A program made the position numbers and the translations under genes. 64,000 nucleotides of DNA from a phage: NCBI GenBank assembly GCA_012646185.1, contig GCA_012646185.1_4706.1; one strand, given 5' to 3'. Shown in pieces: positions 9,155-40,388 of this stretch. The notes below the pieces were generated by a model. That model did no database searches. It was not told the origin of the DNA and saw nothing but the letters and a program-made list of their open reading frames with translations. How positions within the stretch are numbered: the stretch's first letter is position 1; every line of letters starts with the position of its first letter.

Positions 9155-9891
9155 TCGTCAATATCTCCTTCTACAAACAGAGTCAATTTGATTTCAGGGT
9201 CATAGAACATAGTAATCACACCATCTTGCTCTACTGAACGTTGTGCTGTCCATATTAACTGTTCATCCCGAATATCAAATTTATGCCGCTCATCACTCAC
9301 CACGGCTTCCGCATCGACATAGTGATAAATGCCACCTTCAGGATTCTCAATCCAACCACGTACCATCAGACGGTCTTTCTGCTTACGTGTGAAGAATCGA
9401 TACGGATCTTCGCAGGTTCGCCAAACGTCACCGCTCTCGCTTACCAGTTCGTCATACACCTTCGAAAGCTCGTCAGGTACTGGAATCAAAATGTTATCCT
9501 GATAGCCTGACCAGAAACGACGTACGTCTTGTAATAAATCGTCGCTTTGTAGTTTAACCACATGCGTGTGATTCGCAAAATCAGTTTTTGATTCGCTGAA
9601 CCAAAACGCTTTTTCGTTCCCTACAACGACATCGATTCGATCATGTTGAACACAAACCCACCCATAAATCCATCCGTAACCATCAACGTTATATAACGTT
9701 GTTTGGTAACTGACAATATCGATGTCGTCAAACGATGCTAATAAAGCTTTAGCCGCTAGAAGCGGGGAGAAGTTTTTCGATTGCGATGCTTTACGGATGT
9801 CTTCTTTGATGAGTAATTTACCGTGAATTGGATGTTCAATAACAAAACCACAGGAGAGCATGATGCTTCCTTGATAACGTGCTTCTTGCAT
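9151..9891 (-). CDS. hypothetical protein (246 aa)
   Basis: Long ORF, co-oriented, overlaps downstream gene start by 4 nt. Confidence 0.55.
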   Translation of the reverse strand: MQEARYQGSIMLSCGFVIEHPIHGKLLIKEDIRKASQSKNFSPLLAAKALLASFDDIDIVSYQTTLYNVDGYGWIYGWVCVQHDRIDVVVGNEKAFWFSESKTDFANHTHVVKLQSDDLLQDVRRFWSGYQDNILIPVPDELSKVYDELVSESGDVWRTCEDPYRFFTRKQKDRLMVRGWIENPEGGIYHYVDAEAVVSDERHKFDIRDEQLIWTAQRSVEQDGVITMFYDPEIKLTLFVEGDIDE

Positions 9892-9974: not shown

Positions 9975-10505
9975 TTAATTCTGACTTCTCACCTTTTCTA
10001 CCGCTTCAAGAATAGCGTCGTTTAGCCGTTCTCCACGTTCCTCCATTGTCTCATCGCCACTATCTATGTAATTAACGGAATGGATACCCCACGCCCAATA
10101 ACGTGTGTCCATCGACTCTTCTTCCTGGGTAGGATCGTATAATCGACTCGCATTGATGGTCCAGACGTAATCAGCCGACTGTTGTAATAAACATTCACCA
10201 ATAGCGTTTATGTAAGACAGCCCTTCGGTTGTTACCGCAACGATCACGTGCGGGTGCTTACGAACAACTTTTGTGGTTGTTTTCCCATCAACAACCACTT
10301 TACGAGTTACGTTATCGTGTCCTTCGCATGACCACATCGGTGCGATACCAGGCGCGTCCAGTAACGCCCGGCAGGCTGGTAAGATACGTGGTTCGATTTC
10401 ACCTTCTTCGATAGCAGCCCGTGCGCGCTCTTTAAAACGCACCAGTTGTTCTTCAGTGACAACAAAAGAAAACATAATTACTCCTTTCTGGTTCTTCCCC
10501 TCCAC
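9975..10505 (-). CDS. hypothetical protein (176 aa)
   Basis: Long ORF, co-oriented. Confidence 0.55.
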   Translation of the reverse strand: MEGKNQKGVIMFSFVVTEEQLVRFKERARAAIEEGEIEPRILPACRALLDAPGIAPMWSCEGHDNVTRKVVVDGKTTTKVVRKHPHVIVAVTTEGLSYINAIGECLLQQSADYVWTINASRLYDPTQEEESMDTRYWAWGIHSVNYIDSGDETMEERGERLNDAILEAVEKVRSQN

Positions 10506-10546
10506 AGCCTCAGGAAGAGAAGAACCGTTTGCTAAGTTGTTATGTA

Positions 10547-10804
10547 TTAAAATGCATTGATTGGACTGTTCAACGCTTTATCACGGATTTGAATCGCCGC
10601 CAGCATTGCTTTCTGGTACGAATCGTAGGCATCGACAGAAACCGTCATATCAACCAATTCCTTTAATGCGGATTCAGCCGCTTTTACACGGACGCGGAAC
10701 TTGGTGATGGCGTTATCTTTGTTACGATAAACCGTGATGTGGTGCAGCGGTTGAACGTTAGTTTTATTAGTTTTAACGGATTTAGTCGCTTTGATCGTTT
10801 TCAT
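10547..10804 (-). CDS. hypothetical protein (85 aa)
   Basis: ORF with AAGGAAA before ATG at 10804. Confidence 0.45.
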   Translation of the reverse strand: MKTIKATKSVKTNKTNVQPLHHITVYRNKDNAITKFRVRVKAAESALKELVDMTVSVDAYDSYQKAMLAAIQIRDKALNSPINAF

Positions 10805-10848
10805 GATGATTTCCTTCTTTATTAGGATGATTACATTTAGTCAGTTTG

Positions 10849-10883
10849 ACAGCATAAACCCTTCCTGCTTTACGCAGGAAGGG
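10849..10883 (-). terminator. GC hairpin (ccttcctgc/gcaggaagg) followed on minus strand by GTTTATGCTG box
   Basis: Inverted repeat 10859-10868/10874-10883 with 5-nt loop, between stop of 10898-11395 and start of 10547-10804. Confidence 0.45.
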
Positions 10884-10897
10884 CATACGGATTTGTT

Positions 10898-11395
10898 TTA
10901 CGTGTGTCGTCGTTTACCAAAGAAAATGTGGCTATCTACCACGGTGATATTGGTAGCATGTTTTCTGAAATGTTTAGGGCGAAGATGTTTCGCGTTAAAG
11001 AATACGGCTCCTCGTGTTGGGTCGGCTTTATGGTAAGCCGTAATGTCGGTATAACGTAATGTTGCGACCTCTCGTGCTATTGCTCTTGCTCGCTCAAAAG
11101 CAGCACGATCGCGTATGACAATACGCCTTTGTTTTGTCCAGGGGAATTGACCTCTTTGCAGTACGACGTCTTTGACGTTCGTAGGGAATCGGTAGTCCAT
11201 AGATCGATTATGTATTAAAAACGCCACGGAGTATTGCCCTTTTACAGATTCGCCTCTGGCTTCCATATACACAGCACATGCGACGATCTCTTTCCGGCAA
11301 TCGATTCTAGGCCCTGCGTTCACTGATGCTTGACTGAACGGTGTAATAAGCAACATAACAAGCCCTAAAATCAACGTGTGTAAAATACCTTGCAT
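10898..11395 (-). CDS. secreted cell wall hydrolase, SleB/CwlJ-like (Hydrolase_2 family), candidate endolysin
   Basis: Signal-peptide-like N-terminus MQGILHTLILGLVMLLITPFSQASV; motif MEARGESVKGQYSVAFLIHNRS...RFPTNVKDVVLQRGQFPW matches the SleB-type hydrolase signature. Confidence 0.65.
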   Translation of the reverse strand: MQGILHTLILGLVMLLITPFSQASVNAGPRIDCRKEIVACAVYMEARGESVKGQYSVAFLIHNRSMDYRFPTNVKDVVLQRGQFPWTKQRRIVIRDRAAFERARAIAREVATLRYTDITAYHKADPTRGAVFFNAKHLRPKHFRKHATNITVVDSHIFFGKRRHT

Positions 11396-11647
11396 CTTAA
11401 TAACCTCACGATAAGGTGCTGTCCACTGGCGTCTTGATAACGCATCCCGTCATCGGGTTGTTCTATTCAGCGGGCAGCAGGTTAGCGTCAGATGTTTGCC
11501 CGACATCCACGACAGAAATAAACGGTACTGAAATTACGGTCTCCTCTGGTTTGGCAATAAACATAACGTTGGATAACAGAACCCATTTCCCGCATCCAAC
11601 GCGGTAAAGGTGTACATCGTTTGAATTCATATAGTTTCTCAAAGATG

Positions 11648-12016
11648 TTAACCTCTACCGTCAAGCCATAGGTTGTATTTATCCCGAACATACGGATCGC
11701 GATAAATACGTCGATAGACTTGATGTGGTATAAACTTGCAATGTACGAGTTCGTCGCTTAATTTATGCCGTCGCTCCATACCGTTGTGAATACGACGTAT
11801 CTCCCGGATATTAAAGGTTGTTTTATTCAAGAGAATAGACATAATGGCAGATCGATGATCCAGATTAAAGATCGCCATCACGCTTCGTATCTCGCGTAAA
11901 ACAACTTCTCTATCGACAAGGATGCGATTAGTTAACTTAAGATTCTCCGTGATACCCATAACCTTCATCCTCGACACGTCGACACATCGGTAAAAATAAA
12001 CACCAGCTTGTTGCAC
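11648..12016 (-). CDS. hypothetical protein (122 aa)
   Basis: ORF co-oriented; overlaps next ORF. Confidence 0.45.
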   Translation of the reverse strand: MQQAGVYFYRCVDVSRMKVMGITENLKLTNRILVDREVVLREIRSVMAIFNLDHRSAIMSILLNKTTFNIREIRRIHNGMERRHKLSDELVHCKFIPHQVYRRIYRDPYVRDKYNLWLDGRG

Positions 12017-12308
12017 TGAGGATCGCCGTTGCGATGATATTTGCTATATCACTCAGTCGAGCATCGACCTGCCACATAACAAGCATGAAAAGAACGTACG
12101 CGAACCCATACACGACAAACCGTCTGATGTTACGCGTCGACCACGTACAAATATACAAAAGGGGAAGCTGCCCTATAACACAAACGATGGTTCGGATAAC
12201 GTAATAAACGCGTTCCGTCGTTGTTTCAAAATCGATATTCGTTGCAGAAATCCCAATCATTATAAAAGTGAAAATGAAATAGATTTTTGCGTATGTCTTT
12301 AAACTCAT
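11937..12308 (-). CDS. multi-pass membrane protein (123 aa), holin-like candidate
   Basis: Several hydrophobic segments (IYFIFTFIMIGISA, LPLLYICTW, VVYGFAYVLFMLVMW); lies in the lysis-like cluster. Confidence 0.5.
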   Translation of the reverse strand: MSLKTYAKIYFIFTFIMIGISATNIDFETTTERVYYVIRTIVCVIGQLPLLYICTWSTRNIRRFVVYGFAYVLFMLVMWQVDARLSDIANIIATAILSATSWCLFLPMCRRVEDEGYGYHGES

Positions 12309-12324
12309 GGCTTTTCCCGATCGT

Positions 12325-12519
12325 TTATTTGTGTTTTCCTACATTCCTCAACAAGGTAACGATAACGAATACCGCTATCATCAAGAAGACGAACCATAAC
12401 CCTACGTTAATTCGGGCAGCAGGTTCATCGACCATGAAGAACATCATCCCACAAAACCCAATGACCATCCATGCTAGAACCATCCCCGTTAATCCCCGTA
12501 GTAGCATATGTCCCATCAT
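12325..12519 (-). CDS. small two-TM membrane protein (~64 aa from revised start)
   Basis: Start moved to ATG at 12519 (MMGHMLL), preceded by GAAGGAG; hydrophobic segments LTGMVLAWMVIGFCGMMFF and LWFVFLMIAVFVIVTLL. Confidence 0.5.
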   Translation of the reverse strand: MMGHMLLRGLTGMVLAWMVIGFCGMMFFMVDEPAARINVGLWFVFLMIAVFVIVTLLRNVGKHK

Positions 12520-40332: not shown

Positions 40333-40357
40333 CTTTATCTCCTTAACGGGTGCTGGT

Positions 40358-40388
40358 AACGCAGCATAAACCCTCCCCGAAGGGAGGG
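40358..40388 (-). promoter_or_regulatory. GC hairpin CCCTCCC-TTCG-GGGAGGG followed on minus strand by TTTATGCTGCG box
   Basis: Arms 40371-40377 and 40382-40388 with a TTCG loop in minus sense; directly after stop of phosphatase gene; the ATG begins only a 10-codon ORF. Confidence 0.45.

Follow-up and report, generated by a model that had tools for sequence, protein, structure and literature searches.

Introduction

What is the function of 252 nucleotides of phage DNA that lie directly in front of an endolysin gene and carry no annotated gene of their own? The question is raised by a 64,000-nucleotide stretch of phage DNA, the whole of which is called the window below, where a gap of this size separates the start of the endolysin gene from the stop of the gene upstream of it. 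An examination of the letters alone, referred to here as the sequence-only reading, had described the gap as a stretch without a convincing gene, holding only short open reading frames (ORFs) and no clear ribosome binding site, and had suggested that it might contain a promoter for the lysis genes or a small RNA. Comparative alignment was named as one way of checking this. To our knowledge, lysis timing in nucleus-forming jumbo phages, to which the phage in question is related, is essentially unstudied. If the endolysin reaches the cell wall without a holin, the time of its translation would set the time of lysis.

The locus and its neighbouring genes

DNA comparison places the window close to Escherichia phage vB_EcoM_Goslar, a nucleus-forming jumbo phage (Goslarvirus): positions 10800-12400 are 96.8% identical. 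The gap itself is 99.2% identical to its Goslar counterpart, the interval between gp098 and gp099, which is bare of annotation in both Goslar records (NC_048170 / MK327938). Pfam and the Goslar annotation confirm the ends of the gap exactly as the sequence-only reading had drawn them, between the start of a SleB-like gene and the stop of the next gene (Table 1). The genes around the gap are oriented on the minus strand, and neither tRNA nor tmRNA genes were found in the window.

The gene that follows the gap encodes an endolysin of the Hydrolase_2/SleB type, homologous to Goslar gp098, with pS = 0.215 and pN/pS = 0.17 among nine endolysin-anchored genomes. As read from its sequence, the N-terminal segment of this endolysin, MQGILHTLILGLVMLLITPFSQA, is hydrophobic and resembles a signal peptide or signal anchor, which may imply export without a holin. 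Synonymous diversity in the endolysin gene is 0.13 in the first 72 codons and 0.26 in the remainder. Further downstream, a gp096-like ORF (9975-10505, 176 aa) is only 62-78% identical to Goslar and is missing in several relatives (L004-L007, L012), which makes it look like an exchangeable cassette on the downstream side of the lysis gene.

On the other side of the gap, the gp099 homolog is hypervariable among relatives (56-74% nucleotide identity, pS 0.46, pN 0.145) and adjoins the frozen sequence described in the following section; the pattern looks like allelic replacement with junctions at the 3' end of the gene. The homologs of gp100 and gp101 (11937-12308 and 12325-12516, minus strand) are small proteins with several hydrophobic segments each. 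They are candidates for a holin and an antiholin, which would make the region a lysis cluster.

Table 1. Features of the gap and its surroundings, with variable alignment columns and nucleotide diversity (pi) of the segments in the fine-scale comparison; all structures are predicted
Feature	Positions	Strand	Variable columns	pi	Description
Upstream gene, gp099 homolog	11648..11959	-			Goslar annotation; TAA stop at 11648-11650
gp099 3' end	11700-11660		18/41	0.207	
Ultra-conserved block	11396..11660	-			Last 3 gp099 codons and stop, ORF55 initiation region, ORF55, spacer, endolysin initiation region
Gap	11396-11647				252 nt, between endolysin start (11395) and stop of gp099 homolog (11648-11650)
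Hairpin A	11602..11660	-			-23.1 kcal/mol, z = -5.99, 0/200 shuffles as stable
ORF55 initiation region	11659-11631		0/29	0.000	
ORF55	11463..11630	-			ATG at 11630, 55 codons, TAG at 11465-11463; product MNSNDVHLYRVGCGKWVLLSNVMFIAKPEETVISVPFISVVDVGQTSDANLLPAE
ORF55 codons 1-45	11630-11496		15/135	0.022	
Hairpin B	11566..11601 (approx.)	-			ORF55 codons 10-22; -17.9 kcal/mol, z = -3.62, 0/200 shuffles as stable
Helix D, 5' arm	11468..11493	-	1/26	0.003	ORF55 codons 46-55; ends 2 nt before ORF55 stop
Helix D, loop (spacer)	11429..11467	-	26/40	0.27	ORF55 stop, small hairpin CCCG-AUGA-CGGG (11446-11457), TGCGTTA motif
Helix D, 3' arm	11403..11428	-	0/26	0.000	26 nt ending at the endolysin Shine-Dalgarno sequence; includes GAGG (11404-11407)
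SD-to-AUG spacer of endolysin	11402-11396		3/8	0.134	
Endolysin, Hydrolase_2/SleB type, homolog of Goslar gp098	10898..11395	-			Pfam PF07486, E = 6e-16; PHROG endolysin families; Goslar annotation

Nucleotide-level conservation of the gap

For the comparative analysis, 38 related loci were gathered, some of them anchored on the endolysin, and hence unbiased with regard to the gap, and others anchored on variants of ORF55, the 55-codon frame listed in Table 1. The gap was compared with its neighbours in nine endolysin-anchored genomes, covering 11 neighbouring genes and four other spacers over 5.8 kb, and 24 distinct sequences served for the fine-scale comparison. These sequences represent one clade, with endolysins of at least 87% identity; the search via the endolysin found no more distant relatives.

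Diversity falls sharply in a block of 265 nt that comprises the gap and the last codons of gp099. Its pi is 0.014, set against pS values of 0.13-0.46 in the 11 neighbouring genes (pN/pS 0.13-0.51) and pi values of 0.09-0.25 in the four other spacers, and it is more constrained than even the amino-acid-changing sites of every neighbouring gene. All of the 22 lowest-diversity 120-nt windows, out of 450 in the 5.8 kb, overlap this block, and the lowest of them extend as far as 45 nt into the endolysin gene. Only three invariant runs of at least 30 nt exist in the 5.8 kb (11372-11443, 11451-11515 and 11627-11662), and each lies in or at the block. The gap is the most conserved segment of its neighbourhood, so that a spacer left unannotated in the Goslar reference holds the most constrained sequence of the region, and the pattern is one of nucleotide-level constraint without a codon signature. 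The GC content of the gap is ordinary (0.456 vs 0.459).

Conservation within the block is uneven. The spacer between ORF55 and the 3' arm of helix D carries indels and occurs as two deeply different alleles, the first of which shows the small hairpin of Table 1 followed by the TGCGTTA motif. In a second clade (L023 and L029-L038), which has a 164-residue endolysin, the spacer is shorter and unrelated-looking (GCACGCGTTGACAACAAGAAAA) and is itself polymorphic, and ORF55 and the region of the endolysin Shine-Dalgarno (SD) sequence are unchanged. A polymorphic loop of 40 nt enclosed between two frozen blocks argues against both low mutation input and a recent recombinational sweep as the source of the conservation. 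Pairwise distances in the gap and in its flanks are not detectably correlated (Mantel r = 0.09, p = 0.23), a comparison that has little power either way with 1-7 differences per pair.

A conserved 55-codon reading frame

Three frames of the gap are open for 55-67 codons. The best of them, ORF55, takes up two thirds of the gap, and 67 nt separate its end from the start of the endolysin gene. It is kept whole, with its ATG, 55 codons, stop and zero indels, in 24/24 distinct relatives, and the spacer next to it carries several indels in the same 24 sequences. Even the stop is held at the same codon in the second clade, where TAA replaces TAG and the preceding residue is D rather than E (GAT TAA vs GAA TAG). 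Many metagenome assemblies list ORF55 as a predicted gene, as do NCBI assemblies of Salmonella. In assemblies of Salmonella enterica isolates, PGAP labels it "hypothetical protein" on Goslar-like contigs of about 240-250 kb (P0005-P0008), which suggests that Salmonella isolates carry, or get infected by, Goslar-like phages.

The codon usage of ORF55 is gene-like. Its score of 0.134 bits per codon is reached by only 1.5% of 68 spurious ORFs, falls within the range of true genes, and is comparable to or better than the scores of gp099, gp100 and the endolysin. Its ribosome binding site is of another quality: the SD (GAG) has a predicted energy of -2.7 kcal/mol, where the median of 74 window genes is -5.85; 43% of random positions match it and only 16% of window genes are equally weak or weaker. 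Furthermore, the unbiased set gives a pN/pS of 0.65-0.95 and all sequences together give 1.13, compared with 0.13-0.51 in the neighbouring genes, and in the nine endolysin-anchored genomes synonymous and nonsynonymous diversity are equally low (pS = 0.017, pN = 0.016). The 16 C-terminal residues are nearly invariant, and the substitutions that do occur are mostly mild. The gap is not evolving like a protein-coding sequence.

Protein-level searches gave little beyond the clade. Among 5.8 billion proteins, relatives of ORF55 form four clusters, with representatives 93-96% identical to the query and 68 distinct variants; a profile search of 1.84 billion representatives found no other credible homolog outside the Goslar-like clade, and neither Pfam nor PHROG gave a match. 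An AlphaFold2 model, computed from a very shallow, almost single-sequence alignment, is a three-strand beta structure with pLDDT 67, for which a Foldseek search found no structural neighbour (E > 0.28). Digestion of the ORF55 product with trypsin would yield the peptides MNSNDVHLYR and WVLLSNVMFIAKPEETVISVPFISVVDVGQTSDANLLPAE.

Other candidates for a coding function were rejected. The 67-codon minus-strand frame (11691-11488) begins inside gp099, has an SD of +0.3 kcal/mol and a start codon that varies in relatives; a plus-strand GTG ORF of 63 codons (11416-11607) has non-coding codon usage (-0.19 per codon); and an extension of gp099 by frameshifting finds no slippery site, gp099 being hypervariable whereas the block is frozen.

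The sequence-only reading thus proves correct on the ribosome binding site, since the SD of the best ORF is no better than those of random positions. In speaking of short ORFs it undersold a frame that fills most of the gap, has gene-like codon usage and is called as a gene elsewhere. Its verdict of no convincing gene stands as far as protein-level selection goes. The comparative alignment formally overturns that verdict by revealing a conserved 55-codon frame, albeit one whose substitution pattern is unlike that of a protein under purifying selection. The unannotated ORF is in any case a candidate gene to add to the Goslar annotation.

Predicted RNA structure and the endolysin Shine-Dalgarno sequence

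Predicted folding of the gap is strand-specific: the sense RNA is more stable than its shuffles (z = -2.06), with z = -0.31 for the antisense RNA. Taken as a whole, the 265-nt block has a minimum free energy (MFE) of -87.9 kcal/mol, within the top 3.2% of 265-nt sense-strand windows and hence not extreme. Within it, three helices are predicted to be stable in their own right (Table 1).

Hairpin A surrounds the start of ORF55. In its 5' arm lie the final codons of gp099 with the TAA stop, 17 nt upstream of the ORF55 AUG, and the SD region of ORF55; its 3' arm is formed by ORF55 codons 2-9; and its 12-nt loop, AAACUAUAUGAA, presents the ORF55 AUG. The hairpin falls in the top 1.6% of 67-nt sense-strand windows. 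The positions around the ORF55 start (11631-11659) are invariant in all 24 sequences, and the sole variable paired site of the hairpin is an A/G opposite U. Hairpin B follows directly and holds a perfect 8-nt inverted repeat, CGTTGGAT/ATCCAACG (I4); both of its variable paired sites are G/A opposite U. Apart from such hairpin arms, a search of the gap for repeats or iterons returned only short chance matches.

[quoted passage not shown] It is a predicted helix of 21 bp that constitutes the MFE structure of a 111-nt piece (-35 kcal/mol, z = -3.40, 0/200 shuffles as stable), and it is still predicted in two loci, L023 and L022, whose loops differ. According to this fold, the AGG of the endolysin SD and 22 nt upstream of it are paired, and the endolysin AUG lies outside the helix. 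Pairing between the 30 nt upstream of the endolysin start and the preceding 100 nt is predicted at -26.6 kcal/mol, rank 2 among 73 gene starts of the window. The only variable column of the 5' arm is a C->U change at 11473, in a lineage seen in 9 contigs, which keeps a G-U pair. The predicted fold of read-through RNA places the SD of a lysis gene in a stable helix, as in T4 gene e, and the two arms have the layout of long-range translational coupling, the 5' arm lying within the upstream ORF and the 3' arm containing the downstream ribosome binding site.

Variation at paired sites is too sparse to support covariation statistics, and it agrees with the predicted helices. Over all paired positions, nine single transitions preserve the pair (G/A opposite U, C/U opposite G), one change is compensatory (C11539-G11523 to U-A, in 3 sequences), and three transversions are disruptive. 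Covariation is almost absent because the helix arms are invariant, and the shuffle controls of this analysis were mostly non-significant.

Searches for promoters, RNA families and DNA homologs

Goslar-type phages transcribe with their own RNA polymerases, and we know of no Goslar late-promoter motif for which the region might be scanned. A scan for sigma-70-type promoters, which is not relevant to phage polymerases, found none on the coding strand of 10500-12500, and the coding strand of the gap holds no intrinsic terminator. Motif discovery in 23 spacers returned TGCGTTA as the only recurrent 7-mer (5/23), too weak a signal to interpret. The motif lies at 11438-11444 and at 40357-40363 (minus strand), in each case after a GC-rich hairpin and shortly before a gene start, and it may serve the phage as a signal for transcription or processing.

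An Rfam search of 5 kb gave no match at E <= 1 in the gap; the only hit, sR5, has E = 0.37 and lies at 9254-9299. When 321 nt were searched alone, Rfam returned a single, meaningless miRNA match (E = 3.8). Apart from Goslar, no phage yielded a DNA homolog of the gap, and neither did E. coli genomes, plasmids or GTDB genomes; Goslar itself contains no second copy of the element. The suggestion of a small RNA hence finds no backing, with neither an Rfam match nor anything that indicates an independent transcript. The suggestion of a promoter is not supported either, no sigma-70-type promoter having been found in the gap. A regulatory role of the stretch towards the lysis gene, as the sequence-only reading supposed, is nevertheless probable.

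A proposed translational-control leader in front of the endolysin gene

Of the explanations considered, the best supported makes the gap a structured leader of the mRNA that acts in cis, whether or not its mini-ORF is translated. The predicted helices are in register with the gp099 stop, the ORF55 AUG, the ORF55 stop and the endolysin SD, a coincidence of landmarks that points to translational control of the endolysin. The leader probably controls endolysin translation by being unmasked, either through translation of ORF55 or through an internal start of transcription.

Among the specific mechanisms, we tentatively prefer a relay in which translation of ORF55 opens helix D and frees the endolysin SD, although our confidence in it stays a little below an even balance. 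The structured segment of about 265 nt would be part of a polycistronic mRNA running from gp099 through ORF55 to the endolysin. Once this RNA has folded, the endolysin SD and the 22 nt before it would be masked by the last ten codons of ORF55. Ribosomes terminating at gp099 would open hairpin A and initiate at ORF55 despite its weak SD; on reaching the ORF55 stop, 2 nt past the 5' arm, they would unwind helix D, and the endolysin SD would become accessible. What would count in this model is that ORF55 is translated, more than which peptide it yields. Such a relay would explain at once why the ORF is always intact and free of indels, why the peptide is without purifying selection, why its synonymous sites are frozen and why the loop varies. 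The conservation pattern, the ORF and the predicted stability of the helices are results of the analysis, from which we go on to infer that the RNA adopts this fold in the cell, that ribosomes translate ORF55 and that the output of endolysin depends on this.

The cell biology of nucleus-forming phages would favour such a device. In the chimallivirus literature, ribosomes are described as excluded from the compartment in which transcription takes place. If transcripts are made in a ribosome-free phage nucleus, mRNAs would fold fully before they meet a ribosome, and gating by RNA structure, including the masking of an SD, should be especially effective.

Several points weigh against the relay. 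Hairpin A would itself hinder initiation at ORF55, whose SD is at random level. The folds are thermodynamic predictions, and helix D covers the AGG of the SD but not the AUG. Each arm of helix D has another possible reason for its conservation, coding sequence in the one case and a ribosome-binding site in the other. Finally, distances in the gap do not scale with those of the flanks, and recombination history may contribute to the pattern.

Alternative explanations

The first alternative retains the masking and changes the way in which it is lifted. In phage T4, the SD or AUG of genes e, soc, 49 and I-TevI is sequestered in a helix, and late transcripts of gene e start within the structure and hence are without its 5' strand (PMC3014915). 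By analogy, the Goslar-like read-through RNA with helix D would be silent, a late promoter at 11429-11493 would give a translated RNA without the 5' arm, and ORF55 would be incidental. Helix D and its pattern of conservation agree with this, as do the weak SD of ORF55 and its pN/pS of about 1, and TGCGTTA, the motif of 5/23 spacers, sits in the helix D loop and recurs at 40363 after a GC hairpin just before a gene start. There is also a possible need for it: an RNA-seq time course is reported to show 175/249 Goslar genes transcribed already at 5 min (Armbruster et al., bioRxiv 10.1101/2023.09.20.558163), so that a lysis enzyme may require a post-transcriptional delay. On the other hand, the loop, where the start site would have to be located, is the least conserved part of the structure and comes in two alleles, and the frozen codons 1-45 of ORF55, hairpins A and B and the indel-free ORF are left unexplained. 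That the sigma-70 scan showed no promoter counts for little, given its irrelevance to phage polymerases. We regard this explanation as unlikely, if still worth serious attention.

ORF55 might instead be a missed small protein gene with a function of its own, its low synonymous diversity being secondary to mRNA structure or due to chance. No relative has a broken frame, gene finders and PGAP report it, its codon usage equals or surpasses that of annotated neighbours, the AlphaFold2 model contains a three-strand sheet of moderate confidence (pLDDT 67), and the near-invariant C-terminus and the mild substitutions would suit a protein. What makes this doubtful is that every neighbouring gene has a pN/pS (0.13-0.51) below the 0.65-1.1 of ORF55, that the SD is weak, and that no homolog outside the clade turned up among 1.84 billion representatives, nor any Pfam, PHROG or fold match. 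Synonymous diversity lies about tenfold below that of the neighbours, a difference for which the function of a protein offers no explanation.

A structured RNA whose role is not control of the endolysin, for instance a processed stable small RNA, a platform for an RNA-binding protein or a signal for mRNA export or localisation, would account for conservation over 265 nt, more than the masking of one SD needs, and for three independently stable predicted helices confined to the sense strand. Chimalliviruses must export their mRNA and encode an RNA-binding protein, ChmC, that binds near start codons. However, no Rfam family matches, no similar element was found in Goslar, in other phages or in E. 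coli genomes and plasmids, no promoter and terminator bracket the segment, and the registration of the helices with translation landmarks points back to translation. Such a role seems improbable to us. Much the same holds for a more specific version, a long shot in our estimation, by which the block would be an RNA element particular to nucleus-forming phages that gates lysis, acting in export, localisation or as a ChmC-type platform, or as a timer that senses arrival in the cytoplasm, and would be more than a plain hairpin over an SD.

It is very improbable that the block has no special function and owes its uniformity to recent recombinational spread among Goslar-like phages, at a mosaic boundary beside the hypervariable gp099. 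The region is indeed mosaic, with gp099 alleles 56-74% identical and flank distances only partly intercorrelated; the distances of the gap do not track those of the flanks, and polymorphism of very recent origin should show a pN/pS near 1. A sweep spanning the block would, however, have homogenised the 40-nt loop, in which pi = 0.27 and two old alleles persist between frozen blocks; several gp099 haplotypes adjoin the block within about 10 nt, and it is predicted helix arms and initiation regions that are frozen.

The remaining proposal, a DNA-level element such as a promoter for a phage polymerase, a replication or packaging site or a protein-binding site, would fit conservation at the nucleotide level and the poor definition of chimallivirus promoters, but we consider it the most remote of all, as 265 nt is long for a promoter, iterons and repeats are missing, GC content is ordinary, and strand-specific stability and G/A and C/U changes that preserve pairing point to RNA and not to duplex DNA.

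Comparison with known systems

The translational-control leader that we prefer resembles several known arrangements without coinciding with any of them. Translational coupling through long-range mRNA pairing, where ribosomes on an upstream ORF open a downstream ribosome binding site, operates in the coat-replicase region of phage MS2 and in E. coli rpmI-rplT. Similarly, the endolysin ribosome binding site is predicted to be paired inside the upstream ORF55, whose stop follows just after the 5' arm. Unlike the upstream genes of those systems, ORF55 is an orphan 55-codon frame without protein-level selection, and it stands nearer to a leader ORF than to a structural gene.

The likeness to leader-peptide (uORF) regions of bacterial operons lies in a short ORF with a weakly constrained peptide and stable hairpins upstream of a regulated gene. 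Alternative, mutually exclusive hairpins, regulatory codons and a terminator are not in evidence here, and ORF55 is much longer than a classical leader peptide.

As in the T4 lysozyme gene e, the ribosome binding site of a lysis enzyme lies, by prediction in the present case, in an intramolecular helix on read-through RNA, an arrangement whose presumed purpose is to prevent premature lysis (PMC3014915). The two loci share no sequence relationship. Helix D is long-range, with 26-nt arms and a 40-nt loop, and has its 5' arm inside an upstream ORF, and no late promoter has been identified within the Goslar-like structure, in a phage with its own RNA polymerases and a nucleus-like compartment.

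Compared with the Goslar gp098-gp099 interval itself, the locus differs in annotation, ORF55 being unannotated there and annotated by gene callers in other assemblies. With three predicted helices and one mini-ORF, the locus is compact enough to be dissected by mutation, and its frozen, structured leader most likely places a phage lysis gene under translational control by RNA structure in a new form.
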